Of a DNA stretch of 64,000 nucleotides, positions 22,623 through 57,300 are shown piece by piece. The DNA lies in the NCBI GenBank assembly GCA_000091205.1, contig AP006493.2; one strand, 5' to 3'. Made by a program: the position numbers and the translations under genes. Positions within the stretch are counted from its first letter, which is position 1. Every line of letters starts with the position of its first letter. The notes below the pieces were generated by a model. It had not been told where the DNA came from. It saw nothing but the letters and a program-made list of their open reading frames with translations, and ran no database searches. The stretch comes from Cyanidioschyzon merolae. Taxonomy: Eukaryota.

Positions 22623-25600
22623 GTGGTACGTCTGCGGAGCATGGAGACCGAGTTGTATCGAGAGAGCGCACTTTTCTCCTGGGATGAGGTTGCGACCTGG
22701 ACAACGCGTAGTTTGGCTACAGGGAGGACCGCGGAACCCGAGTCCATCGCTAGCCCTGGTGGGCCGACTGCCTCCCAGGGCGCAACGCAAACAGCGCTCG
22801 AAGCTAGCAGCGGGCGGGTTGTGGACGCGGGCGCGGTGTTTGGCGCTCCCGTACGAGACTCAGAGGCAGGTTTCAATGACGAGTACATCGAGGTGCTCAT
22901 CTGGAGGCTTTTGCGTCACAAGGAGCGGGATCGGGCTGGTGCCTCGCTTTGGCTCGAGATCGCCCGGAAACGTTTCTACGGTTCTATGCAAAAGTTTCCA
23001 GATCCAGGGGCTCTGGGAAACCTGTCGACTTTGCAAGCGACGCTTGCTCAAGTCTTACACGGAGAGCGGTGGCGTCTACTGGACGAATCCATCTCCGCCG
23101 TGGTCTTTGGTGCGGACCCGAGCTGGTGCTACCTCCTCGTTGCGGGTACTCGACTTGTCTGCGTTCGACTGAGCGCGCTCAAGTCAGCCCAGACAGAAGT
23201 TGTTGCTTACGAGTACAGAAACGGGTTGGGTGTAGGCACAGCGCTTTCGTCCGAACGAGTGATGCGAACACCTGGAAGCATGCGTCGGGAATCTGTTCAG
23301 GAAAGCCACCTCGATACCGAGACGGCGGATATGCGTTACTTTTCCATGGAGACCTACGCCCCATTTCCCTCGAACACAGTTCAGACGCTGCACTTGCCGA
23401 CCGAAGTTTACGCAATCCAAGCCTTGGAGGATGCGCCGCACGCTTTTATTGCGTTCGCACGAAGTGGGCATCTATTCCGTATCGAAATCATGCAGCCTAC
23501 GGGAATGGATGTGACAAACGTTTCATACACGCTGACGACGCTCGCATCCCCGAAGAGTTTCCGTAATTTCGGTCCAGCAAAGAGGATACTGCAATCACTG
23601 AAAACGCCGGGGCGCCTGGGGGCCACGGCGGGAGCCTCCACACCAACCCGCGTATCTCCGCTGGGAGTGGAGAGGCGGACGCCTTGGCTTGCCAGCAGCA
23701 GGTCTGCAGGTCGCGCTTTTGGACAAGTTCCGATCGTTGCAACTTGTGCGATGCGTGGCCACGTGTTGATGCTCGACATGGAGGGCATTTTTCGACTGTG
23801 GGACCTGGGCAACCCGCAGGTCTTTGTTGAGTCGGTGCCCTGGCGTGCCTCGCTGGCGTCATCGGGGAGTTTCGGCTTGGTGCCGCATACGCATTCTGTG
23901 GAGATAGCTGCGCCAAACGGAGTAATGGCCTCATTTTTAGCCGTCGTCTCTGTTTTGGACGCAAGCGGCCTGTTGCGTTTGCAACTCATTCATGTCGTCT
24001 TGCGGCGCGCTGCTGAGGAAAACAGCACGCCCACCGGTCTGGAACTCACCACACAGCTCTTGGCTGATGCGGAGGCGCCTGCGGAAGAGCTGACGACGTG
24101 CTGCTTCTGGCAATCGCAGCAGGCACTCTGTCTGGGCTGGGCAAACGGCAGTATCACCTTGATACCGGTATCCGCTGATGCTATCTCATCGGCAAGTACC
24201 CGGGAAGCCTCGGGAGAGCCCTGGTGGTCATTCTCACTGAAGCCGGTCTACAGTATCGCTGCCGAGGATGAGATAGATGCGGACCTCCATCTGCAAGGCG
24301 CCCTGGATCGGACACCGGGACGCGACCCGGTAGAGCGTATTCTAGCGCCGCATCGTTTCCCCTGGGGCACTGTCTACCGGGTACTGCAGCGTTCGCTCCG
24401 CAGCGAGCAAGATGCTGCAAATACCTCTGCCGTGACGTCGGAGTACGCACTGGATCAAAGCATGTCACCGTGGACGTTATCGGCGTCGCCGTGCCTCGTT
24501 CGGTATCTGCGGGAGCGCCTGGTCGAGCTCGCAACACAGGATCCCGCGACGATGGATCGCTTCCTTCGTCGCGTTCGCATGTTTTACCTCGAAAACGACG
24601 CGTCCGTTCTACAGCTGCAACCGATGCCTCTTTTGGATGCATTCAGCCTTGTCGTGCATCCCTGGGGTGCCGCCGTACTCCGCCTCTGTGATGCGTCGGA
24701 GTGCCTGTTTTTCCGGAGTCGCGATCATTCGTTCAGCACCAATCAGGGCGATGCGCTGCCCTGGATGACTTTCTTGAGTAGGCTGCTTGTCGAGCGCTTC
24801 AATGCTTCACGCTGCGATGCCTCGATTGGTGGATCAACGCCAGCGCTGGAGCCACTTGCATCGCCACCGGCCTTGCTGCAACAGGACGACTCGGCAGCGC
24901 TGCTGCATCACCTGTGGGATATCGTGACTGGTCCATGTCTGCTGACCGCGGATGCTCTACAGCGCCTCCAACCGCCACCTGGCCTGCTAGCAGTCGTGCA
25001 GGCTACAAGTCTGCCGCAAATTGCCTACGTGCGGCGGACTTTTGCTGGCATTGGCGCGAATCTTGCCGCGCTAGGGCAGCAGCAGCAGCAGCAGCAGCTA
25101 AATTTCTGGAATCACCAGGAACGGCTGTGGGACTTGGCACTGCGCATCAGCACCAGCGCCGAGCTAAGCGACCAGTACGGACACCATTTCGTGGAACGAA
25201 TGCTCGGGAACGGCGAGTGGCTCGTTTGGCTGAAAATGCAGCACGCGCTCAGCACAGACTCTGTTAACGCCAACGCAAGCGCGTCTGCCGGCTCTGCCAC
25301 CTGGTTGACGCTGGTACCGCTGCTGATACGGCCGAGTCCTTCGATGGTACGTCTTCTGGTAGAGAAGGCGCCGTTGCACTGGGCGCTGCTCCTGATCGAT
25401 TCTTTCTATGAGAATGAGATGCCTGCGGTTCGTGCTCATGTGGCAGGCCTCATCGCACTGCAGCGCTGGCGTGAGGAGCGGCAAACGGATCCAGTGTCGC
25501 CTTTTGTTGAGGCGTGGACGGAGCTCCAGCAGAAGCAGCGGCCACTTGATCTGGAACTCTTACCACAACTCGTTGGAAGTATGAGCGGTGCACTGGATTA

Positions 25601-27233
25601 CGCAGAACGCATGGTGGAGTTTCTCGAGGATCAACAGGCGCATGAGGCAGCCTGTCAAATGGCGCGAGTCGCCCTTGCGACCCTAAGGGCAGAGCGCCAT
25701 GTGCAAGCAGGAGGCGAGCCTCAACCGGGCCTCGTTTCTGTACGTGAACGAACCGAGCGAGAAATCACCCAGACTCAGTTGGGATTCTTTCTATTCATGC
25801 GGGCACTGGATACGAACGCGCTCGACGAGGCGCTCTCGGTGCTCGTGAAGGATCTCCGGGAATCGAGTGCGCCTCAGACCCGTGATGCGCTCTATCTCCT
25901 GCTACAAAAAGCCATCGAAATGAAAGGAATGCCGTGGTTGCTGGCTCAATCCCTACCACCTCTGTGCTTTCTGCGCTCTGCTGAGGCGCTTTGGCGCCTC
26001 GCGACCGCCTGTGATCTGGAGCGTGCGGGTTCACTGTACGAGACGACGTGTGCTGTTTACATGACTCGGAACGAATGGTGGCTGGCAGCGTGCGTCGCCG
26101 TTGACTGGGCCGAGCGTACTCGTCAAGCACTGGACGCGGTACCAGCGGCACAGCAAGCGCAGTTGCTGGTCGACGCTTCAGCCGCTGGCGAGTCTGAACG
26201 CGTCACATGGCTCCTGGAGCAACGTCAGTGCGCGTTACAGCTCGCGCTCTACCTGCTCAAGCAGGCCGGGGACAAAGCCGTTCCCGTCACTCCGTCCTGG
26301 GTGATGGTCCAAGAGGCTGACATTCGTCGGGCCTGGTTGCTCGTTCGCTATCAACGTGCACTGCGACGTCAGCTGAATGCATCGGGGCACAGCAGCGGAA
26401 ACTTGCGTTTCCTATTCGAGACCAGCGATGCGGCAGCTCGATCCGTGGCGTATCAGCTTGTCGCTAGTCCACATCGTTTCGATGGTGAGAGCGGTATCAT
26501 GGCAGCTCTGAGGCTCACGTGTTTATGGTGGAACGAAGCTACTGCTGCTACTGCTGCATCTTCTGATGCGGCGGCTCCAAGCATGGCGCTCGCTGATGTT
26601 CGTCGCGAGACTGCTCGTATTATTCGCCTTGCTGTCGAGCGTGTGCAACCTTTATATGATGAACATGCAGCGGCTGATGCTGCGCTCGTCCAGATCGACA
26701 AGGAACTCGAAGCGGCCCTCAATTACGCTGCTTTGACCGCGCGAACTGGGTACGTTTTCACTCCTGCTCTGGAGGCCTGGATTCAGTGCACTGGCAAGCC
26801 CATGCAGACCGCTAGCTCCGAGCGCAGAACGAATTCCCAGGGAATAGCTACAGAGCGCTTGCCGAACAGGGACCTGGACCCTGCTGCGATACCAACGTCA
26901 ACTGCGGAAGCGAGGATACCCAGTCGCAAACAAAGCGATGACGCGAGCGAGTCCAAACCGGCGCCGTCCACCTTCAAAACGAAAGTGACAGTGGGCATCG
27001 CTTCGGCACCACGTTGGCTAGTTGATGCCGTGGCCCTGCGCGAGAACCACCTCGAGTCTATGCTGAAGCTGCTGATACAAAAGCAGCTCTATGCTGACGC
27101 TGCTCAACTCGTTGTCTTGCGCTTGGAGTGCAGCAGCCCTCGGCGACACCCTATCTATCTCTCACAACATGTTCTGCTTCAGCTGCGAGAACTCCTGAAC
27201 GCTGCCCCGGACACCAGTGCAACCACGTCCTGA
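22623..27233 (+). CDS. Very large hypothetical protein (1536 aa), possibly N-terminal beta-rich plus C-terminal alpha-solenoid
   Basis: A 4.6-kb uninterrupted ORF with an internal polyQ tract (QQQQQQQ) and no recognisable catalytic motif. An architecture reminiscent of nucleoporin/coat scaffolds is only a guess. Confidence 0.6.
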   Translation: MVRLRSMETELYRESALFSWDEVATWTTRSLATGRTAEPESIASPGGPTASQGATQTALEASSGRVVDAGAVFGAPVRDSEAGFNDEYIEVLIWRLLRHKERDRAGASLWLEIARKRFYGSMQKFPDPGALGNLSTLQATLAQVLHGERWRLLDESISAVVFGADPSWCYLLVAGTRLVCVRLSALKSAQTEVVAYEYRNGLGVGTALSSERVMRTPGSMRRESVQESHLDTETADMRYFSMETYAPFPSNTVQTLHLPTEVYAIQALEDAPHAFIAFARSGHLFRIEIMQPTGMDVTNVSYTLTTLASPKSFRNFGPAKRILQSLKTPGRLGATAGASTPTRVSPLGVERRTPWLASSRSAGRAFGQVPIVATCAMRGHVLMLDMEGIFRLWDLGNPQVFVESVPWRASLASSGSFGLVPHTHSVEIAAPNGVMASFLAVVSVLDASGLLRLQLIHVVLRRAAEENSTPTGLELTTQLLADAEAPAEELTTCCFWQSQQALCLGWANGSITLIPVSADAISSASTREASGEPWWSFSLKPVYSIAAEDEIDADLHLQGALDRTPGRDPVERILAPHRFPWGTVYRVLQRSLRSEQDAANTSAVTSEYALDQSMSPWTLSASPCLVRYLRERLVELATQDPATMDRFLRRVRMFYLENDASVLQLQPMPLLDAFSLVVHPWGAAVLRLCDASECLFFRSRDHSFSTNQGDALPWMTFLSRLLVERFNASRCDASIGGSTPALEPLASPPALLQQDDSAALLHHLWDIVTGPCLLTADALQRLQPPPGLLAVVQATSLPQIAYVRRTFAGIGANLAALGQQQQQQQLNFWNHQERLWDLALRISTSAELSDQYGHHFVERMLGNGEWLVWLKMQHALSTDSVNANASASAGSATWLTLVPLLIRPSPSMVRLLVEKAPLHWALLLIDSFYENEMPAVRAHVAGLIALQRWREERQTDPVSPFVEAWTELQQKQRPLDLELLPQLVGSMSGALDYAERMVEFLEDQQAHEAACQMARVALATLRAERHVQAGGEPQPGLVSVRERTEREITQTQLGFFLFMRALDTNALDEALSVLVKDLRESSAPQTRDALYLLLQKAIEMKGMPWLLAQSLPPLCFLRSAEALWRLATACDLERAGSLYETTCAVYMTRNEWWLAACVAVDWAERTRQALDAVPAAQQAQLLVDASAAGESERVTWLLEQRQCALQLALYLLKQAGDKAVPVTPSWVMVQEADIRRAWLLVRYQRALRRQLNASGHSSGNLRFLFETSDAAARSVAYQLVASPHRFDGESGIMAALRLTCLWWNEATAATAASSDAAAPSMALADVRRETARIIRLAVERVQPLYDEHAAADAALVQIDKELEAALNYAALTARTGYVFTPALEAWIQCTGKPMQTASSERRTNSQGIATERLPNRDLDPAAIPTSTAEARIPSRKQSDDASESKPAPSTFKTKVTVGIASAPRWLVDAVALRENHLESMLKLLIQKQLYADAAQLVVLRLECSSPRRHPIYLSQHVLLQLRELLNAAPDTSATTS

Positions 27234-42346: not shown

Positions 42347-44920
42347 ATGCAAGAAACGTCCAGTGAAGACATCGGTGCCCTTGGAAAGCTACTGGAGAAC
42401 CCGAGCCCAGAGAGAGGCGGTGAAACAGGTGTCAGCGCTCTTGGGGCCAACGCGAAGCAGCACGTTTCCGTAGGCTCTACAGCGGAGTTTGACCGAGCGG
42501 GTACGAGCGCCAACAGTACACATGTATCGAAAGAAGAATCTTCAAGTCGAGTTTTAGGCGGATTTTTTGATATACACCAGAGAGAGCCACCACCCGTTTC
42601 GCGTTGGCCGTGGTCAGCGACACACGGGAGCGCAAGCGGTTCTCAGTCGACGTGCCCCGGCAGTGATGAAACCAAAAACGGGGGAGAAGTAGCGCGTGAC
42701 GCCAAAGAGGCCATGCAGTCGCGTACCTATACGTCTCTTGGTGGAGCTACTCGCGAGGTATTGCGTGGTTCTGGTTACGGGGCGCCTGTGAAGGACCCAC
42801 TGGCTCATGATGACAACGACAGAAGCAGCCAAGGCATTGGCTATGTAAGTAGCACGAAATGGAGAGGTTTATCAAATCAGGGTACACCTCTGTCAATGGA
42901 CTACGGTGCCAGGGAAACGAGCAGCGTGCAGCGCATCACGAGCGACCTCAAACACCTAGCATTGTCGGCACTGAATGGATCACCGCTTGGCTTTGCGGAT
43001 TCCCCGGAAGGCAACGCCATGTCCAGTATGGACGTGAGCGATCTGCTTTCAGTCTGCAAGCACGAGTCTTTCCAGCCGCGATCAATGGTCATCGAGCAGC
43101 AAGTCGCGCAAACGCCGCAGCGACGTGAGTCGGTGAGCTACCACATGGACCTCGCTGTGGATGAAAGCTCTGGTTTGCAACGTGACAGGTTCGTGCAGGC
43201 ACTGGGTTCGGGACACAGCACCGCACCGGGCAAGGAACTGGACCCTGTTGTGGTTCAAAGCTTCGGAGCGGAGCCAGGGACGCACGACGCCACCGAGCGA
43301 CTTGGGAAAGGCACTAGGTCCGAGCGCATTTCCACAGCTTTCGCAGAATCTTTGCCAATGCCCGCGTCTCGCCCAGAGACGGACACTCTCTTGCACCGGT
43401 ATGATCGTACTGATGAGAAGGCCGCCGATGCACGAGAATGGATCAGAGCAAACCGATCACCGATTACAGACCAGGGCTCGCTCTCAGTTTCTCAGTCTGT
43501 CTATCAGCATGGAAACATTCCCCGTGGTACGCGTTCAGAGGCGGCAGACGACGCTTTGAATGGGTCAGCAGCGACGCAACTGCGCAGCGATGCATTTCAC
43601 TCGAGTTCCCGTGTATGGGGATCTGCGCAACCCGAATATCCCGGTGTCGAGCAGCGTGTCCACGAGGTGGTCCATATATCCCGGCGACTTTCAGCGCTCG
43701 ACAAGACGCGCAGTACTTGGAGTGAAGAGACGTCCCGCGGTCCACGTGTGCCCGCCGGCGATCCCGATTCATTTCGTCAGGAGGCCGCGAGACTTGTTGA
43801 AAGAATTCGCCAGCTCGAAGGTGATTTACATCGTTCATCAAAGGAGCATCCGCGAGCAAATCCAGTGCGGGGCTCGGTCGCGCCTCCAGAGCGCCGCCGC
43901 TGCACCCCCGAAACGCTTCCCGTTGGAGCTATAGAGTCGAGAGCGCCTGATGTGCCAGCATCAAGTTCAGCGCATGTGGACGACGGTTTGGCCGTCGACC
44001 ACCGTAGCACCGGAGCAGAGCACGTCGCATCTGGTGGCGTCTTTCGGGAGACTGGAATCGGAGCCCGACGAGATCTTGATTCTACGGCACGTGAGCGTTT
44101 CCGAGAAACGCCTTCGCATGTACCTAATGCATTGCTCTCTGGGGAACGTCCACTGGACGAGCAGGGGCTGCTCGAAGCGCATGAGCTGCGGCGCTCACCG
44201 ACGCTGTCAACAGTAGATTCGACCCCAGTCAGCGTATCGCCGCTTCACACGCCGGTTGCGCGGCAAAGCTCCATAGAGCGCCGATCGCTAGCAGCCTCGG
44301 ACCATGCAAGTTGGTCGCAACCCGCACCTGACCACTCGGAACGGCACCATACACATGTTCAGACGAGTGGTCAAGAAGCTTTTAGCGAATTGCCACGAGC
44401 AACACTACGTCAACGGCTAGAAATCACCCTACGGCAACTTGGTGAACTGCAGGCTGTCGTAGACCAGCAGTTTGAAGTAATCGCTCGACTAGACGAAGAA
44501 AGGAGCGCCTTACAAGAGCGGCTCGCAGACACCACCGCGCCCTCAACGCCCATGCGTACGGCGAGTACGCAAACCGAATACTCCAAGCTCACAGCGTCAT
44601 CGGATGATGATGATGATGAACAACCACCAACAGCCGTGTACTGGCAACGCAAGTACGAGCAAGCCTGTCGCGAATACCGCTTCTATGCTTCCCAAAAATC
44701 ACAGGCGCTTCGTATTGCACAGCTCCGAAACGCGAAACTCGAACGCCTCGTCGAACGCCTCCAAAAGCAGCTTCACGAGGCCGAAGCCGACATCACCGTC
44801 GCCAGGGAACGCTTGACGAGGCTGCGACGAGAGCACCAGCGTTTGCGGACCTGGGTCCTGGAGAACGGCCTCACTTTGAGTCCCCTGCAAAAGCTAGAGC
44901 GTGAAAGCCCTAGTCCGTGA
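42347..44920 (+). CDS. Hypothetical Ser-rich protein (857 aa), largely disordered, with a C-terminal coiled-coil
   Basis: A long uninterrupted ORF. The C-terminal ~150 aa ('LRQRLEITLRQLGELQAVVDQQFEVIARLDEERSALQERL...LERLVERLQKQLHEAEADITVARERLTRLRREHQRLR') is strongly heptad-like. I recognise no enzymatic motif. Confidence 0.5.
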   Translation: MQETSSEDIGALGKLLENPSPERGGETGVSALGANAKQHVSVGSTAEFDRAGTSANSTHVSKEESSSRVLGGFFDIHQREPPPVSRWPWSATHGSASGSQSTCPGSDETKNGGEVARDAKEAMQSRTYTSLGGATREVLRGSGYGAPVKDPLAHDDNDRSSQGIGYVSSTKWRGLSNQGTPLSMDYGARETSSVQRITSDLKHLALSALNGSPLGFADSPEGNAMSSMDVSDLLSVCKHESFQPRSMVIEQQVAQTPQRRESVSYHMDLAVDESSGLQRDRFVQALGSGHSTAPGKELDPVVVQSFGAEPGTHDATERLGKGTRSERISTAFAESLPMPASRPETDTLLHRYDRTDEKAADAREWIRANRSPITDQGSLSVSQSVYQHGNIPRGTRSEAADDALNGSAATQLRSDAFHSSSRVWGSAQPEYPGVEQRVHEVVHISRRLSALDKTRSTWSEETSRGPRVPAGDPDSFRQEAARLVERIRQLEGDLHRSSKEHPRANPVRGSVAPPERRRCTPETLPVGAIESRAPDVPASSSAHVDDGLAVDHRSTGAEHVASGGVFRETGIGARRDLDSTARERFRETPSHVPNALLSGERPLDEQGLLEAHELRRSPTLSTVDSTPVSVSPLHTPVARQSSIERRSLAASDHASWSQPAPDHSERHHTHVQTSGQEAFSELPRATLRQRLEITLRQLGELQAVVDQQFEVIARLDEERSALQERLADTTAPSTPMRTASTQTEYSKLTASSDDDDDEQPPTAVYWQRKYEQACREYRFYASQKSQALRIAQLRNAKLERLVERLQKQLHEAEADITVARERLTRLRREHQRLRTWVLENGLTLSPLQKLERESPSP

Positions 44921-47854: not shown

Positions 47855-50800
47855 ATAACGATTCGTTTGGCGCTCTGGGAAAGAGATCTCGCTCGCCGGT
47901 CGTTCGGGTTCAGAGAATGGACGGTACCCTCGTTCAGGGTCTTCCGTCCGATGCAAGTCGCTTCTGTGGCATCTTGTCGAAGCGCACTCGCAGCGTACCC
48001 GACGGAGGCGTCATTGGTCAACGGCAACAATGCGCACCACGCATTCGAGAACGTCAATGCATCGGGGTCCCGTACCAGCAGTATCTCAGCGCCGCAGACT
48101 GCCTGGGTACACTTTGTCGCTCCAGTGCCATGGATCTGCAGCACAATGACATTATCCGAGAGACAGGGCCGCTTCGTCTGCCTATCAAGGATCTGGATGC
48201 TGCCGTTTTCATGGTGAACACGATCGCATATTGTGATCTGTCACCGAAGCGGTAGTAGAGTCCAACGCCTCCAGCGCATGTTCGCCTGTGTGCGAGGTAA
48301 GCATCTCGATGCTGAGGACGCCACATATTGCGCTGGTGGTTATCATGCTTATGCATTGATGCACAGTAAACATTCTCTCTGTGAACTCGTGTACAATGAT
48401 GCGGTGATTGGCGTTTCCCCCATCTATCGAGTTAGTTAGCTGCACTGCGCTGTCCAGTGCACCACCATCCTCTCGGATCAACGCTTAGAGTCGTCTTTCG
48501 AAGGACACCGCTGCTCGCCCAACGGTCGGTTTTCAAGTCAACTTGCACAGAGTATTCACTTTAAACTGTTTGCATCAACCAGAGATGACGTTATGGGTAG
48601 CGCGCGACCGTGCCAATGCAACAGCAAGCGTCACCAGCGATGTGGCCTGCGCACCACTGCGTCCACAGAAGAGACGCAATCAACTGGTTTCGAAACGATC
48701 CAAACCGACTCGGTGCTGGAACGCATCGTCTTTACTTTGATCTGGATACCCCGACGACGAGAACGTATGTCTGTGCAGCATGGTACAGTGTTCGCCTACA
48801 ATTTCAAACCAGACGGTACAGTGAATGCTAGAGAATGATCGGACACCAGGAGTGTTTAAAAATAACGCAGAAGACTCGTTCTTGGTGTGTATGGACGGCT
48901 ATCCAGCATCTCTGGATCCCTCAGCCGCACCCTGCAAGTGCACTGCTTCAGGTGAGCAAGCCGTGGCCTCTCTCTCTGTCTCTCTGCTGGCCACTGAGCG
49001 ATTCCCCATCACAAGTCCGCAGCGATTCAGCATATCACGCCCGTACACGGCACTAAAGTACTCACTGAACGATTCGTTCGATGCATAACCGTTGCACGAT
49101 TTGGAATCAAACGACCCATTTCCGAATGTTGATCGAGGTGTTCTGATATCGGTGCAGAAACTGCCTGCGTGTATGGACGGTGGCGAGAATCACACGATAT
49201 CACGCCGATTCCTGTCGTTTTCCTCGTTATCCAGCGTTCGTTCACCTTACTCTACACCATCCCGTGCATTCAGCTCTATTTCACACGTTCATTCACTACC
49301 TACTTCAACGTGCACTTGTACTCATTCTGCGTCCATGTCGTCCTGAACACATCTACGCCCGTAAAGCAGCGTCGATACCAGCACTCTATGTGTGCCGAGG
49401 TCGAGGGCGCACGAGTGCAGCATTTGCGCACCACGGCGTGTCCAGCGTCATAGGATACCACCGGCAGACGACGCGATGTATCAGTCATTTCTTTTTGCGG
49501 CTCATTGAACAAGCTGGAGAGTCCCCAGCGCACGCTCATGGAAGCCTGCACAAAGTCGTCCGCTTGGTCCATATGGACGTTCATAGATACGCTCAGTGAA
49601 CGAGGCTCAGAACAAAGCATGCGGCTCTGCTGGGCACTTTCCTGAGCGTGTCAAAATTGGTCCGAGCGCCATCATTCCCTTTTGTTGGTATGCTTCGTCG
49701 CGTCCATGATGTCTAGCGTTCGATAACCATGCCCCGGAAAAGTTGGGGAGCTTCACTTGCTTTCCGTTCAGGTTTTTGGCTCCATCCTCTCAGCTTCCAT
49801 GTGCAGAAACAGCTGCATTGTTCGCCAACCCATGATCTAGGCTCACCACGAAGTTTTGCTCTTCACATACTTGAGCATTGAACATGCATCTCGTCGCTCG
49901 ATGCAGACCAAGGTTTCAAAATAAGACATGCAGATTGACATTCCGTCGGTCTCCATTGTTCCTGAAAATTTATTTTTATTTCTTTCCTGTACATTAGAAA
50001 GCTTGAGCGAGCTCAACGGATACATTACGCAAAGCTTTTCGAATGCCTCCGGGTTGCTCGCGGTGACCAGCTTCTTCTTCACCTTCTCCGGTCCGTTGTG
50101 TGATGCAGTAGACGTGGTAACCATACATTATATCTATTTCCTATCATTCGGATTCAGATGAAGTGGGTAGACGGCGACACTGAATCTCGCCTCTTCTATT
50201 TATTTATTTACTATTTCTCATGTATCTTTTAGGCAGCTTTTCCGTACCGAGGCCGCCCACTGCGCGAATTGAAGGTTCCCGTTCCCTCCTGCGCACGAGC
50301 ACAAGAGCAGAAGAGCGAAAGCTCACTTCAGGGATGGTGGAGGTAGTAGAGGATGATTCGTCGATGAAAGCTGTCATAGATGCGAAGACTCATCCATCGA
50401 TACGTGAGCGTCGACAGGGCATTTCGCAACAGCGAAGAAGCCTCCCACAGGATTCATCCAGGGAGAATAGACTGGGATGAAGAGCAGCTCTATGCAAATT
50501 TCACTTGGTTATTCGTTAACCGCTTTTGAGTGATGGAGAGCGACATTATCCAAGAGCATGACAGAGGAGTGTGGGAAGAACAAGCCACGAAATGTGCTTC
50601 GACACCGAATGGAGGGTAGAACGATCCTGTCCGTTTGACGATTTGTAGGCGACCCCACATCAGCGTCGCATCTTAAATGGATATTGTCGGAATGTTCCAT
50701 TTTCTGTTCAAAAGAACCGGTACTTTATCCAGCTTCGGGTACCCGTGTACAGGTCCAATCTTTCTCCCGAATCAAGTTTCATCGAATGAGACGAATATCC

Positions 50801-52217
50801 GTCCCTATTGTAAGAAGAGATCGCGTTTTCGTGCAAAATCGATCGTTTGTTTTTCTTTTGCGAGCGACGCTTCCGTACAAAAGCGAGCTATCTTATTTTT
50901 CCATCAGTATCTCTTCATAAGCGTTCGTAGCGTCGGTGCGGAAAAGTTCAAATTCTGTGGCGTTGTTGGCAGTATTTCTTGGAGAACCTATTGAGTGGAA
51001 TGGATTGAATAACAGATGATGGTGTAGATGGAATTTCGTTAGTCCTGGTATGGACGCGCCCTATTCAGGATGAGGACTGCGAGAAGGAAAGCTCATCCAC
51101 ATACTGACTAACTGTAAAATGCCTGGTACCTATTAGGCCGTGTTCCGTAAGCTAGCAATAATATCATAACGTCTGTAAGCGAGTGTTCTCCAGCCTACTG
51201 GATAGATTCCAGTTTTCGAATACCTTCGAGAGAAACAAACAAAACATTCATTGCATGTTGCTCCATGTGTTTGAGAATTCACTGCACTGGGTACAGCGCA
51301 GATTGCGTTGTATGAGGAGCTCAGGAAACACAGTCGTATTCGAATTATGACTCGGAAACCGGCGTCTACCCCAGACCGGAAACGCCTTTCGCACGTGATC
51401 GAGACAGAGCTCCAAGCCAGTGCGCGTTCACTGGAAAGCCTGCTCCTCTTCCGCTTCCTTCGCTCCATGGAATCGTGCTCCCGTCAGCGCGAATACGCGT
51501 CCATCACGAGACTGTTACTCGCGACCCGGGTACCTAAAACGGCAACGTTTTGCACAACGGCCAGAAGGTTTTACGTCCAATACAAAACATGTACTGTTGC
51601 GGACCCGCAAGCTCCATCGCTGCTCTTTCGTTCATACTAGATTATCGGCACAGAGAAACCGCGGCAACCGGCATCCAAGCAATCTCCAAAACAATCGCGG
51701 ACCATGATCGTCTGCGGAGTGTGTCTAGAATCACATTCCTTTTGTGCAAGCCGGACTGCTTCGGTCATGATTTGTCAGTTGATCAATCGAATGATCTATC
51801 TGCTGTTTATCCTACTCGTTGCCCGTTTTGCAACGCTAATTGCACACTCACGTGACCAGAGCGGGAAAGCGGAACCAAATACCACTCCCATGACCCCAGA
51901 AGGCGACGCAAACGCTCGAACGCAATGCAACATACACAACTCTGCAACTTGTGAGACATACTCTACAGCGTCGCCTGCAGGAGTTGAAGAATACTCGATG
52001 TAGAGTGTAAAGGGTGCAGTTTGGTTCAAACCTGTTGACTGCACGCGCAAGGCAAATATCCCAGAGGCGATGGAGCGCAGTTTGCAGCTTCTTGGACGGT
52101 TTGCACTGCACAGAACGTGCAGTGTCCGCCAAGCAGGTTCAACAACGAAAACAAGCAACACCGCGAACTACTGACGAACGCTGCTGAAGCAAGCAAGTGT
52201 CGCCAAAGCAGTCAGAC

Positions 52218-52733
52218 TCAAGCGTCCATGGCAGCCGGCTGGTCACTACGCGTGAAGCCGTTCTGCGCCAACTCCGCTGCAAGCTTTGCAGCAAAGTCCT
52301 CGTCCTGATCGATCATTTCCCAGTCATCTTGCCATTCGAGTTCATCCTCTTCAACAGCAGCTAGATCTGGTTCCCAGTTGTGAAGTTCAAACTCATCAAA
52401 GTCGTCATCTTCTTCAAAAAAGTCCAAATCGTCCTCGAGTCGATCCGCCCTCTTTTGCTCGCCTTCCACCGCAGCAGGAGACCGCTTTCCCTGTTCTCCC
52501 CCTTGTCTCGCGCTCTGTGCGGCTTGCCCGTTGGTGTGGGTATTGTTCGGTTCCTCAGGCATGAGGTTCTTTGGTTCACTAGTCACGACAGCAGTCGTAG
52601 CTACGTACTGGTGCAGCGCGCACAACAATGGTCGCGCCATGCTTACAGCGATACGCACTCCAGCTCTTGAACGTGTTTCACCGCTTCGACTCGTGTGATG
52701 CTCAGTGTTCGGCTCGTGTCCGTGATGGTGCAA
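52218..52733 (-). CDS. SEM1: DSS1/SEM1 (26S proteasome lid subunit / BRCA2 partner); conserved acidic C-terminal region
   Basis: 'LDFFEEDDDFDEFELHNWEPDLAAVEEDELEWQDDWEMIDQDEDFAAKLAAELAQNG' matches DSS1 ([50 protein letters not shown]). The likely true start is an internal Met, e.g. MPEEPNN at 52562 (114 aa). The ORF-opening Met at 52733 would give 171 aa. Confidence 0.7.
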   Translation of the reverse strand: MHHHGHEPNTEHHTSRSGETRSRAGVRIAVSMARPLLCALHQYVATTAVVTSEPKNLMPEEPNNTHTNGQAAQSARQGGEQGKRSPAAVEGEQKRADRLEDDLDFFEEDDDFDEFELHNWEPDLAAVEEDELEWQDDWEMIDQDEDFAAKLAAELAQNGFTRSDQPAAMDA

Positions 52734-53754: not shown

Positions 53755-56700
53755 GTGTCGCTACAGCTTCCTGTGTGTAGCCATGCTGTACGAACATATC
53801 TGCTCTGTCTACCATTCAGCGTGTGCATCATACGTGCAACAGTTTTTCTCATTGGTCCTGGGCAACGACGCAAGCAAAAGCAAAGCGTACTGCCTTCATG
53901 CATTAAGCGCGATACTCTGAGCCTCGTCGTTACGCAAGTACTAGCGTCGCGCAGGGACGCTCACGGTTTGACCCTCGCCACTGCCTTCGCGGACGCTGAG
54001 CGAATCGTCAGTTCGGAAGTGCTCGTCTGCTTGTTCGCGAGCTTGAGCGTTGCACACAAGTCACCGGCTTCGATGCCTGAGCCAGTGGACGATGCGCTCC
54101 GCAGGCGACTGCTACAGCCCGAAAGCCTGCGCGTTGAAGGTCTCTCGAGAACGCAGGACGCCCAACTGAGTGACTCGCTGAACGATGATGAAGAGATAGC
54201 AGTGCGCTTTACCGGGCAATCGGGCTCACCCCAGGCTCAGAGTGGAAATCTGAACCGAGCGTCTGCCCCTTTCTTAGGATACTTTGCTGAGGTGTCCTCA
54301 GCGACACCACGGCAGGCACAGCATGTGCAGTGGAAAGCAGCACGTCGTCGACTTGTTTGCATTTTGTTGGTTCTGGTCCCCGTTATCGTCATGATCGGCA
54401 TCGTTGCAAGCCTCCGTCAATACATAACCGAGCACGGTACGGAGAGTCTCGTTCGAAAGCGCCTATCGCACTGGGGTATTGCCGCAACTGTACCTCTTTA
54501 TAGCGAGAAGCGCTGGCGACGTGTATGGAATGCAACGCTCACTTACACAGGACAGCGAGGCTTCTTTGGCGTCTACATCGGAAGCGGTGCCTCCAACAGT
54601 ACCCTGAACAAAGTATGGCTTGAAGTACCGATCTCCGAACTCGAGCAGCCGTTCGTCATCGATAGTCTGATTACCCGCGGCGATGCTGAGGCATTCATGC
54701 TTCATGCTCCCTCTAACCGTGCACAAGAGAACTGGTTTGCCTTGCGTTTAGGGAAACCACGTCCATCATGGGCAGTTGATCTGTATCGACCCCAGCTCGG
54801 GGTGCGCATTCAGCATAACGACTCTGAGCTGGCTGCGTCCTATGCGGCAGGCACATGGACCGGATGGAGCAAGATCCTGCGGATCGTGGCGGTGACGTAC
54901 CAGGATGCGCTGTCCGTGAACAAAACAGCGTCGTTTGAAAATGTAACAGACGAAACGAAAAACCTTCGCTTGATCCTGGACGTCACTCCCTGGGTCAGTG
55001 ACGGATTCGCGGTGCTCTCGGAAGATGCACCCGCAAAGCTCACCGCGCAGACGAGCTCGCCCGCGAAAGCGCCCTGGTCTTATCGGGTCATTGCAGCGAA
55101 AGCGTATCCAGGTAATGTCGAGATCCGAGTGGAGGCTATGTTTCCACAGAAAGAGGCTGCCAGCGGCTGGAACCCTTCGGGTGTCTCTGCAGCAGAGATC
55201 TCCTTCCAGCTGGTGCGGCTCCCATCGGATTCGCTTCCACTCAGACTCGCAGACGAGCGAATCGGCTACTTTACGACGTCGTTTCTGTTGTTGGATCACG
55301 ACGAGGGAATCCACGAACGCATCGATGTCATCAATCGTCGACGCTTACCCACCGTATTCTATATCGATCCGACAGTTCCGAGTCGCTGGAGACTTTGTCT
55401 CAAACGTGGCGTGGAGAACTGGAACCTCGCCTTTGCTCAGGCCGGTTGGAATAAATCTGCGGCTAGGGTAGAGCCAGCGATTCGAGCCGTCCTCCCCGAG
55501 GACAGCGACTGGCCCTCGGACTACGATATCGGTGATATTCGTTTCAGCACCATCAGCTGGTCGCCTTCACTTAACAGTGTCTTCGCGCTAGGACCGAGCA
55601 ATATCGATCCACGTACTGGGGAAATTCTCAACTCGAATATTATCTTTACGCACGGATGGATTCGCAGTCTGATGCGACAATACACAAATCTGGTCGCTGC
55701 GCAGCAGCGCTTGACTGCACCGAACGACAGCAGTCGTCTCAGTGGACAACGTCGGAGTAGCGAAGCCTATCCCATGGCGAGCGTCTCCACCGTGCGCGAG
55801 TCGCCAGCGCTGCGTCGTGTTCAGCTCGTGGATGCTGCGCGCCTGGATACAGCAGCGTTTGCGATACTCGAGGTTATGGCACTGGTGTCGGATGTCGGCG
55901 ATGTACCCGAGAGATTCATCTGCGATGCGCTCATCGATACCACGATGCATGAGGTTGGTCATGCACTCGGCTTGCGGCATAACTTTAGGGCGAGCGCGAA
56001 CGTACGCTGGCAGGATCTGAGCGATCCCGAGTACGTTGAACGCAACGGGATCAGCTCATCGGTGATGGATTACCTTCCGATTTTGATTTTTGCCGATAGT
56101 CAGAAGCAAACGCGCTATTTTCAGCACGTTATTGGAGCATACGATATCTTGGCTATTCGATATGGATATGGAGGGAGCGAGCGCCCCACGCAGCTGTTGG
56201 AGCAGTTGCATTCCAGCAGTCTGTCACTGCGCCAAGCAGTCGACGAAGCATTGACGGAGCACCGTGTGGAGCTCGCACCGCTTGCCGAGCAGGCCGTGGA
56301 GGCAGGTCTCCATTTTGGTACCGACGAAGATGACCCCAGTCCGAATGGTGTGGATGTCTATGTTTCGCAGTGGGATCTCTCCGACGATCCGCTCGCGTAT
56401 CATGAAAACGTTCGACTGGTTGTTGGGCGAGCGCTGTCGAGTCTGCGCGCCCTTGTGCATGAGCGCGACCTTTCATGGAGCGATTACTCTGAACTTGTCC
56501 GGTACGCGCTCTTCTTTGGGAGTCGCAGTGCGCTCTATGCAACCAAGTTTCTCGGGAGCATTGAGCTACGTCGGGGTCACCCCGCGGATATTGCCCCAGG
56601 CAGAGCAGCTCGCACCGTCCAGGTGCCGCGCAAACCCGTCGATACGGAGACGATGCAGCGGGCACTTGGACTCTTGCGGCGCCTGCTGTCGCCACTGGAC

Positions 56701-57300
56701 CACGAGGCGATCCTGGGTGGTGGCTACCCAACGTGGGCTCTGGACCTTGTCGAGCCTGCTGGCAAGTGTGACGGTGTGGTTACTCACTGTCTGGGTACGA
56801 GACCGGTTTCGGCTCTGACGCTGCTGCAGCAGACGCGAAGTCAGGTACTCAGTTTGGCCCTGCATCCACAACGACTCGTCTGGTTGCAAGAGAACGCTTT
56901 ATGGGGGACAGCGTCTACGCTTCCACTGCATACATATCTGGAGTTATTGACGAACATGTTTTTCGATCCGAAGAATGTAGAAACGAGTCCAGAAAAATTC
57001 CCTCTGGTGCGGGACGCCCAAGTGGACTATGTGCTTGCGCTCCGAACCTCGTTTCTGAATATGAGCACGACGTCAAAGGGCCAAGGTGCAGTCTCCGCTG
57101 TTGCGTATGAGCTTCGTCGAATTCACTGTTTGGTGCGTAGAATGCTAGAGGCACCGGCGCCTGCTGCAGAAAACACCTCCAGCGACACGATGCATCGAGC
57201 GCACCTTCTCGGTCTCAGCGCACTTCTCGGTGACAAGTTTCCGCCGCTGGACTCACCCAGTCTGTACGGGATGCTCACTGTACCGTGTCCGACTAGTTGA
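53755..57300 (+). CDS. Membrane-anchored zinc metalloprotease of the bacterial-like met-zincin family (HExxHxxGxxH; DUF4953/DUF5117-like), 1181 aa
   Basis: The zincin active site is 'TMHEVGHALGLRHNFRASANVRWQDLSDPEYVERNGISSSVMDY'. There is a single N-terminal TM/signal-anchor 'RRRLVCILLVLVPVIVMIGIVASL'. The probable start is Met at 54073 (MPEPVDD), though the ORF opens at 53755. Confidence 0.8.
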   Translation: MSLQLPVCSHAVRTYLLCLPFSVCIIRATVFLIGPGQRRKQKQSVLPSCIKRDTLSLVVTQVLASRRDAHGLTLATAFADAERIVSSEVLVCLFASLSVAHKSPASMPEPVDDALRRRLLQPESLRVEGLSRTQDAQLSDSLNDDEEIAVRFTGQSGSPQAQSGNLNRASAPFLGYFAEVSSATPRQAQHVQWKAARRRLVCILLVLVPVIVMIGIVASLRQYITEHGTESLVRKRLSHWGIAATVPLYSEKRWRRVWNATLTYTGQRGFFGVYIGSGASNSTLNKVWLEVPISELEQPFVIDSLITRGDAEAFMLHAPSNRAQENWFALRLGKPRPSWAVDLYRPQLGVRIQHNDSELAASYAAGTWTGWSKILRIVAVTYQDALSVNKTASFENVTDETKNLRLILDVTPWVSDGFAVLSEDAPAKLTAQTSSPAKAPWSYRVIAAKAYPGNVEIRVEAMFPQKEAASGWNPSGVSAAEISFQLVRLPSDSLPLRLADERIGYFTTSFLLLDHDEGIHERIDVINRRRLPTVFYIDPTVPSRWRLCLKRGVENWNLAFAQAGWNKSAARVEPAIRAVLPEDSDWPSDYDIGDIRFSTISWSPSLNSVFALGPSNIDPRTGEILNSNIIFTHGWIRSLMRQYTNLVAAQQRLTAPNDSSRLSGQRRSSEAYPMASVSTVRESPALRRVQLVDAARLDTAAFAILEVMALVSDVGDVPERFICDALIDTTMHEVGHALGLRHNFRASANVRWQDLSDPEYVERNGISSSVMDYLPILIFADSQKQTRYFQHVIGAYDILAIRYGYGGSERPTQLLEQLHSSSLSLRQAVDEALTEHRVELAPLAEQAVEAGLHFGTDEDDPSPNGVDVYVSQWDLSDDPLAYHENVRLVVGRALSSLRALVHERDLSWSDYSELVRYALFFGSRSALYATKFLGSIELRRGHPADIAPGRAARTVQVPRKPVDTETMQRALGLLRRLLSPLDHEAILGGGYPTWALDLVEPAGKCDGVVTHCLGTRPVSALTLLQQTRSQVLSLALHPQRLVWLQENALWGTASTLPLHTYLELLTNMFFDPKNVETSPEKFPLVRDAQVDYVLALRTSFLNMSTTSKGQGAVSAVAYELRRIHCLVRRMLEAPAPAAENTSSDTMHRAHLLGLSALLGDKFPPLDSPSLYGMLTVPCPTS

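Follow-up and report, generated by a model that had tools for sequence, protein, structure and literature searches.

We analysed a 64,000-nucleotide stretch of the Cyanidioschyzon merolae genome (hereafter the window), and within it the gene CMK138C, which probably encodes a catalytically competent, type II membrane-anchored zinc endopeptidase, i.e. a metzincin of the DUF5118/DUF5117-DUF4953 type, and which we regard as a vertically inherited red-algal gene. A mechanical listing of open reading frames (ORFs) gives the gene as an ORF of 1181 codons at 53755-57300 (+) with a GTG start, and both this ORF and the active-site block HEVGHALGLRHNF...SVMDY (55948-55983 and 56059-56073), to which the initial annotation had drawn attention, are present in the window. 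The length of 1181 amino acids (aa) had to be revised. The first in-frame ATG is codon 107 of the GTG ORF (window position 54073) and opens a product of 1075 aa whose entire length matches the C. merolae 10D protein XP_005536552.1 / BAM80516.1 / UniProt M1US77 at 100% identity. The Cyanidiococcus orthologue has 1079 aa and can be aligned from its first residues, and a Cyanidioschyzon-like species from a metagenome (L001) carries an in-frame stop 4 codons upstream of the homologous methionine, so the longer protein is an artefact of bacterial-style ORF calling.

In public annotation XP_005536552.1 is a "hypothetical protein, conserved", and UniProt automatically labels CMK138C as an EcxA-zinc-binding-domain protein. 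The locus tag itself is supplied by a 2026 dataset (PMC13353863, Supplementary Data Set 8), according to which the gene is transcribed at 25-34 transcripts per million in both diploid and haploid cells, with no differential expression. The window has a guanine-cytosine (GC) content of 56% and long intron-free ORFs on both strands, and the neighbours of CMK138C are ordinary eukaryotic genes (acyl-CoA oxidase, PP2C, Dna2, enoyl-CoA hydratase, Impact_N). Contamination or misassembly was considered and dropped in view of the 100% match to the finished genome and the conserved synteny described below.

By its sequence CMK138C is a metzincin (met-zincin) of the DUF4953/DUF5117 family with an intact motif, and this assignment, already proposed in the initial annotation, is confirmed far beyond chance. 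The Pfam model PF16313 (DUF4953 'Met-zincin', the EcxA zinc-binding domain of InterPro) is matched at E=2.7e-47 with 162 bits (cut-off 24.2) over model positions 5-313 of 316. N-terminal of it lies a match to PF17148 (DUF5117; E=2.4e-12, 47.5 bits, cut-off 27) that covers only model positions 66-186 of 189. PF17162 (DUF5118), the third model that had been put forward for checking, gave no match at E<=1 in C. merolae, Cyanidiococcus or Cyanidium. The C. merolae region can still be aligned with bacterial DUF5118, and Pyropia keeps a DUF5118 match of 27.6 bits; since bona fide bacterial members such as P0024 also lack DUF5118, this domain is not a defining feature of the family. The protein was rightly set apart from astacins, ADAMs and MMPs, as Peptidase_M10 (Matrixin; 14.6 bits, cut-off 24), Reprolysin_3 (15.1 bits, cut-off 22.4) and Reprolysin_5 (14.7 bits, cut-off 27) all stay below their cut-offs with E-values of about 0.03, and the best NCBIfam model, serralysin, reaches 15 bits against a cut-off of 500.

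The zinc site is well preserved. The extended HExxHxxGxxH motif reads HEVGHALGLRH (aa 626-636), and in an alignment of 27 sequences ranging from red algae to Proteobacteria the residues H626, E627, G629, H630, G633, R635, H636, N637, F638, S663, M665 and Y667 are invariant. The zinc motif is also kept in 200 of 200 sequences of a larger set, which follows from the way that set was constructed, and SVMDY occurs in 162 of these 200 with conservative variants in the remainder. A degenerate HExxH relic, a finding that the initial annotation had named as one that would speak against it, is ruled out by this conservation of the zinc-site and Met-turn residues. One could still picture a pseudoprotease, i.e. 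a non-catalytic relic that acts as a binding or scaffold protein, as the large C-terminal helical and the beta domains could bind partners; nothing specific speaks for it, and with the zinc ligands, the catalytic glutamate, the Met-turn and the tyrosine invariant from bacteria to C. merolae we consider it scarcely probable.

The domain architecture was examined on an AlphaFold2 model built from 27 sequences (predicted template modelling score 0.77, mean predicted local distance difference test (pLDDT) 71), in which the predicted catalytic domain has a metzincin-like fold, as is expected of a member of the metzincin clan. The roughly 600 aa upstream of the active site, earlier read as a region fused to the protease, turn out to be something else: a tail of about 93 aa, a transmembrane helix, a beta domain of the DUF5118/DUF5117 type and the N-terminal half of the catalytic domain. 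Bacterial members have the Pfam order DUF5118 - DUF5117 - unmodelled N-terminal catalytic half - DUF4953, and the CMK138C ectodomain is fully collinear with it. The N-terminal beta domain has no solved structural relative; it might be a pro-domain or a module for substrate binding. Apart from the zinc site, no block is as conserved in bacteria and eukaryotes alike as RLADERIGYF, which lies at the junction between DUF5117 and the catalytic domain and occurs in RLAD[DE]R[IV]GYF variants throughout the 200-sequence set. This block could be a latency switch or a part of the substrate cleft. The eukaryote-specific cysteine pair C899...C906 in the C-terminal domain probably forms a disulfide loop.

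A single signal-anchor helix had been proposed, and a single one was found. The only 19-residue window with a Kyte-Doolittle mean of at least 1.6 is located at aa 94-114 (maximum 3.29), and the published predictions list one transmembrane segment by Phobius and a negative SignalP result (PMC13353863, Supplementary Data Set 8). The flank preceding the helix, KAARRR, carries a charge of +4, and the net charge of the flank following it is near zero; under the positive-inside rule residues 1-93 would be cytosolic and about 960 residues lumenal or extracellular. All of the N-x-S/T sequons (9 out of 9) are C-terminal of the helix, and these, like the cysteine pair found only in eukaryotes, fit a lumenal or extracellular ectodomain. 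With one internal anchor, positive charge N-terminal of it and most of the polypeptide on its C-terminal side, CMK138C has the features of a type II single-pass protein and is predicted to be oriented N-in/C-out. The internal anchor is typical of the eukaryotic branch, as the hydrophobic segment lies beyond residue 30 in 38 of the 61 eukaryote-type homologues in which a segment is detectable, and within the first 12 residues in 35 of the 47 corresponding bacterial ones.

It is conceivable that the anchor serves only for entry into the endoplasmic reticulum (ER), and that the ectodomain is then shed or secreted, with an activation of the MMP-23 type. The stalk following the helix (aa 120-136) is of low confidence in the model and basic (...SLVRKRL...), which would fit this view, and the bacterial relatives, given their N-terminal signal peptides, are apparently exported. 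However, SignalP is negative (PMC13353863) and the hydrophobic segment begins at residue 94, too internal for a cleavable signal peptide, and we therefore consider soluble release rather unlikely.

Within the otherwise divergent tail, the three Cyanidioschyzon-type species (C. merolae, Cyanidiococcus and the metagenome species) have one block in common, [VI]D.A[LI]RRRLL.P, which was located in Cyanidiococcus (L003; 10001-10070) and in the metagenome species (L001; just upstream of 10001). To judge from this pattern the block may be a sorting signal, either an RxR-type ER retrieval signal or a leucine-based one. A canonical [DE]xxxL[LI] dileucine motif was also considered for the tail and dropped, since the spacing does not fit. 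Plastid or mitochondrial targeting was dropped as well, the tail being acidic and followed by a signal anchor. The isoelectric point of the ectodomain (6.15) is inside the range of the homologues from neutrophilic algae and gives no hint on exposure to acid.

Taken together, these features suggest the following mode of action. A tail of about 93 aa, disordered and cytosolic and perhaps with the RRRLL-type motif directing sorting, would be followed by one signal-anchor helix, which would tether the protein either to the cell surface or to a secretory-pathway membrane. On the far side of the membrane, in the lumen or outside the cell, would lie the beta-rich DUF5117 domain, the EcxA-like metzincin catalytic domain and the large alpha-helical domain. 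H626, H630 and H636 would bind the zinc, E627 would be the general base that activates the water molecule, and M665 would form the Met-turn. In astacins and serralysins a tyrosine in the Met-turn lies near the zinc, and Y667 presumably occupies the same position. The enzyme would then cleave lumenal or surface proteins or peptides. A role in nutrition or host interaction, which had been suggested in case the organism was a saprotroph or pathogen, is moot, as C. merolae is a free-living photoautotrophic acidophile.

Several points weigh against this interpretation. C. merolae 10D is wall-less and inhabits strongly acidic water, and coordination of zinc by histidines is not expected to survive strong acid on an exposed surface; a role as plasma-membrane ectoenzyme is therefore doubtful, and an internal compartment is at least as likely. 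Searches of one literature library returned no paper on DUF4953, DUF5117, DUF5118, CMK138C or its accessions. Finally, the tree used below to argue for vertical inheritance is a neighbour-joining tree only, on 639 columns, and its bacterial sample is biased to query-like sequences.

It is useful to compare CMK138C with better known systems. The closest in architecture are the bacterial DUF5118-DUF5117-DUF4953 proteins (Nostoc/Calothrix P0011 and P0012; Acetothermia L004), which have the same domain order and a collinear ectodomain at about 25-30% identity, and which share the motifs HExGHxLGLRHNF, SVMDY and RLAD[DE]RIGYF. The differences are found elsewhere. Most bacterial members carry an N-terminal signal peptide in place of the approximately 93-aa tail and signal anchor, they have xxW[DS][PA]xD and no cysteine pair where CMK138C has WPxDY and the pair, and unlike the bacterial module the DUF5118 region of CMK138C is too divergent for a Pfam match.

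EcxA, which forms the metzincin A subunit of the Escherichia coli EcxAB AB5 toxin (PDB 4l63/4l6t) and gave the InterPro domain its name, is the one relative that has been studied. A phmmer search of the PDB with the single protein gave no match at E<=1, whereas the family profile reached EcxA with a match of about 34 residues. The two proteins share the HExGHxLGLxHN motif, but the resemblance is limited to the catalytic core: EcxA lacks the DUF5117 domain, the C-terminal helical domain and the membrane anchor, all three of which are present in CMK138C. According to PMC11610972 and PMC8779504, EcxA has a 266-aa catalytic domain and an A2 linker, which docks into a B pentamer resembling that of cholera toxin, and little beyond its structure is known. 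CMK138C does not qualify as the A subunit of an AB5 toxin, as it is 1075 aa long, has additional domains and has no B-subunit gene nearby.

Among eukaryotic enzymes, membrane-type MMPs (MT-MMPs), ADAMs and meprins are the general analogues of a membrane-tethered metzincin, and MMP-23 is the closest as regards the type II anchor. CMK138C is outside the families of MT-MMPs and MMP-23 (M10), ADAMs (M12B), meprins (M12A) and leishmanolysin (M8). Pfam detects no disintegrin, hemopexin or MAM/TRAF domain in it, no cysteine-switch propeptide was recognised (no test was aimed at one), and the residue following the third histidine is an asparagine, unlike in the classical eukaryotic membrane metzincins. 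With serralysins and astacins it shares the tyrosine of the Met-turn (SxMxY), but it has neither an astacin match in Pfam nor an RTX domain.

The family as a whole is predominantly bacterial, as had been recognised initially. When 1.84 billion cluster representatives (clusters at 50% identity) were searched exhaustively with phmmer, there were 3181 relatives at E<=1e-3, 1632 at E<=1e-10 and 378 at E<=1e-30, and in GTDB, with one genome per species, there are at least 588 bacterial loci. Among the GTDB matches listed the best are from Acetothermia/Bipolaricaulota (E=6e-79), followed by Gemmatimonadota, Planctomycetota, Cyanobacteria, Betaproteobacteria and others. The strongest matches to CMK138C, however, are eukaryotic. 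They come from the Cyanidioschyzon-like metagenome species (62% identity), Cyanidiococcus (56%) and Cyanidium (44%), from Cyanophora paradoxa, Porphyridium, Rhodosorus, Purpureofilum, Compsopogon and Pyropia, and from Prymnesium parvum, Pyrodinium, Pythium and Phytophthora. Each red-algal class sampled, and a glaucophyte, has an orthologue. Several of the eukaryotic homologues are on Mb-scale nuclear scaffolds, so the sequences from outside the Cyanidiophyceae are unlikely to be contaminants. A second, word-indexed protein search with a 45-sequence eukaryote-type alignment found no new proteins. Two of the oomycete gene models are fused to other domains, P0010 (Pythium brassicae) to an amino-acid permease and P0014 (Phytophthora kernoviae) to AAA/KTI12-like domains; these are most likely merged gene predictions and not real fusions. 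The initial annotation had held that assignment to a standard eukaryotic metalloprotease clan, with orthologues across related eukaryotes, would speak against it: such orthologues do exist, but the protein falls in no such clan.

The window, Cyanidiococcus and two metagenome contigs share the gene order DSS1/SEM1-like - protease - enoyl-CoA hydratase - Impact_N, so that the synteny extends across the three Cyanidioschyzon-type species. In a neighbour-joining tree (198 sequences, 639 trimmed columns, Kimura distances, 100-200 bootstraps) all named eukaryotes, namely red algae, Cyanophora, Prymnesium, Pyrodinium and oomycetes, fall into one clade of 114 sequences that contains no named bacterium and has a bootstrap of 100%. 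Within it Cyanidiophyceae (100%), red algae (73%) and oomycetes (100%) are recovered as groups. The clade has a signature of its own, [WFY]Px[DE][YF] (WPSDY in CMK138C), which occurs in 112 of the 198 sequences; these are 112 of the 114 clade members, including all named eukaryotes and no named bacteria, and the two other members, the unnamed P0056 and P0068, have variant forms. In bacterial sequences this position is mostly taken by xxW[DS][PA]xD, and invariably so in the named bacteria. The cysteine pair is present in 52 of 113 eukaryote-type sequences vs none of the 87 bacterial ones in the 200-sequence set. Three unnamed clade members are on long contigs and have eukaryotic neighbours there, including GINS, UBA3, CCDC22, TMEM260, an ALG-type glycosyltransferase and a SANT domain protein.

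These observations bear on the horizontal origin that had been considered possible for the gene. A recent acquisition of the gene from bacteria, by the lineage of Cyanidioschyzon or of the Cyanidiales, would agree with the overwhelming number of bacterial members, with Nostocales as the best named non-eukaryotic matches in the first word-indexed search and Acetothermia/Bipolaricaulota (E=6e-79) as the best of the listed GTDB matches, and with the known roughly 1% of horizontally transferred genes in Cyanidiales (cf. PMC6629376). For this organism it is nevertheless extremely unlikely. Cyanidium, Compsopogon, Porphyridium, Rhodosorus, Purpureofilum, Pyropia and Cyanophora have orthologues of the gene, and Prymnesium, Pyrodinium and the oomycetes have relatives of it; all eukaryotic copies are in one clade with 100% support apart from named bacteria, with the red algae together at 73%; the synteny is conserved; and the main text of PMC6629376 mentions no metalloprotease among its transfer candidates. 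As far as its sequence relationships tell, CMK138C is thus an old eukaryotic lineage of ultimately bacterial type and not a recent bacterial import.

Endosymbiotic gene transfer, i.e. from the cyanobacterial ancestor of the plastid to red algae and glaucophytes with later spread of the gene together with red plastids, is a second route from bacteria. It is suggested by the cyanobacteria that were the top named bacterial matches in the first search, and by the named eukaryotic lineages, which mostly bear plastids or are related to lineages that do. We find it very unlikely, since in the neighbour-joining tree the cyanobacterial sequences form a clade of their own (98%) nested deep in the bacterial part and a grouping of the eukaryote clade with them has a bootstrap of 0%; in addition, Acetothermia, Gemmatimonadota and Planctomycetota score as high as or higher than cyanobacteria among the GTDB matches listed. 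The N-terminus, an acidic tail and then a signal anchor, is not transit-peptide-like either, and no green-plant member was seen among the nameable sequences, in a survey that was not exhaustive.

The relation to one group of uncultured bacteria is less easily settled. Inside the eukaryote-type clade there is a subclade P0061/P0217-P0057-P0058 (bootstrap 100%) that is bacterial. P0217 (L084 10001-13180) is located on a compact contig next to sodB, between purH and rpsB-tsf-pyrH-frr, and P0057 and P0058 (L089 1078-4320 and 4997-7645) are tandem paralogues that flank merC (MerC). We give about even odds to a single ancient exchange with this lineage, which would have been either the donor of all eukaryotic copies or a recipient from a eukaryote. 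For such an exchange speaks that the three bacterial sequences carry the eukaryote-type WPxDY and sit inside the clade, on a plainly bacterial contig in the case of P0217 and in tandem around MerC in that of P0057/P0058, and that they carry an N-terminal signal peptide but not the eukaryotic cysteine pair. However, the placement is weak (53% with Cyanophora; 22% for eukaryotes monophyletic without the subclade), and the bacterium is unclassifiable: apart from one exact match named only "bacterium", no sequence in the database exceeds 56% identity to its PurH.

In a wider and more tentative reading, to which we give slightly less than an even chance, the eukaryote-type clade is an ancient and so far unrecognised metzincin family of eukaryotes that stands beside MMPs, ADAMs, astacins, leishmanolysins and pappalysins and goes back to a single ancient exchange with the uncultured bacterial lineage. 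Such a family would be characterised by the type II anchor, the DUF5117-DUF4953 arrangement, WPxDY, the eukaryote-only disulfide loop and the beta domain without a solved relative, and it would range over red algae, glaucophytes, haptophytes, dinoflagellates, oomycetes and unnamed picoeukaryotes.

Positions in the window of CMK138C and its features
Feature	Position	Strand	Basis
CMK138C coding sequence, 1075 aa + stop	54073..57300	+	first ATG in the GTG ORF; protein match; upstream stop in orthologue
Predicted cytosolic N-terminal tail, aa 1-93	54073..54351	+	disordered in model (pLDDT <50, aa 1-95); positive-inside rule
Tail motif VDDALRRRLLQP, candidate sorting signal	54085..54120	+	common to three Cyanidioschyzon-type species
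Transmembrane signal-anchor helix LVCILLVLVPVIVMIGIVASL, aa 94-114	54352..54414	+	19-residue Kyte-Doolittle window; model helix 93-121; Phobius
Beta-rich N-terminal ectodomain, aa 143-425 (divergent DUF5118-like start, then DUF5117)	54499..55347	+	
RLADERIGYF block	55243..55272	+	R391, D394, R396, F400 invariant in 27-sequence alignment
Metzincin catalytic domain, alpha/beta, aa 426-700	55348..56172	+	model pLDDT mostly 85-96
WPSDY, eukaryote-type clade signature [WFY]Px[DE][YF]	55510..55524	+	alignment
Low-confidence insertion between beta-sheet subdomain and active-site helix, aa 549-590	55717..55842	+	disordered loop in model (pLDDT <50); gappy, unconserved
Zinc-binding/catalytic motif HEVGHALGLRHN	55948..55983	+	putative ligands H626, H630, H636 and general base E627; alignments
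Met-turn SVMDY (M665, Y667), aa 663-667	56059..56073	+	S663, M665, Y667 invariant in 27-sequence alignment
C-terminal all-alpha domain, aa 705-1060	56185..57252	+	N-terminal part covered by Pfam DUF4953 model
Cysteine pair CDGVVTHC (C899...C906)	56767..56790	+	eukaryote-specific

The surroundings of the gene deserve a short comment. The C-terminus of the divergently oriented neighbour CMK137C, a 'hypothetical protein' at window 52218-52733 (-), is acidic and resembles DSS1/SEM1 (DDLDFFEEDDDFDEFELHNWEPD...). In L001 and L003 the orthologues of CMK137C give weak DSS1_SEM1 matches in Pfam and have only 114-117 aa, so the 171-aa ORF with a TTG start listed for CMK137C is probably over-extended. 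About 2 kb upstream of CMK137C/CMK138C is a region (window 49500-52000) that contains no ORF of 150 aa or more and has a GC content of 0.482 vs 0.558 for the whole window. C. merolae centromeres, as described in 10.1101/096016 citing Kanesaki 2015, are regions of 2-3 kb with about 48.4% GC, one per chromosome; because its GC content and size resemble these, the stretch may be the centromere of chromosome 11. Two long ORFs, 22623-27233 (+) with 1536 aa and 42347-44920 (+) with 857 aa, match no Pfam family at E<=1e-5, and in the whole 64-kb window (1-64000) ARAGORN finds no tRNA gene and no Rfam family reaches its gathering threshold.

The annotation of the gene and the automatic EcxA-domain label were already public, and CMK138C is an uncharacterised member of a known family. 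What the present analysis adds is a corrected start and topology, a eukaryote-type clade with its own signatures and the rejection of recent horizontal as well as endosymbiotic gene transfer; it also singles out E627, the RRRLL tail motif, the RLADERIGYF block and the cysteine pair as targets. We regard the result as useful, though not as one that would surprise a specialist. CMK138C appears to be a single expressed copy, although paralogues outside the window were not searched for, and C. merolae permits gene targeting by homologous recombination, so this gene offers a practical entry to a first function for the DUF5117/DUF4953 proteins. If the clade does prove to be an ancient eukaryotic metzincin family, its function would most obviously be sought in C. 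merolae, which is genetically tractable.

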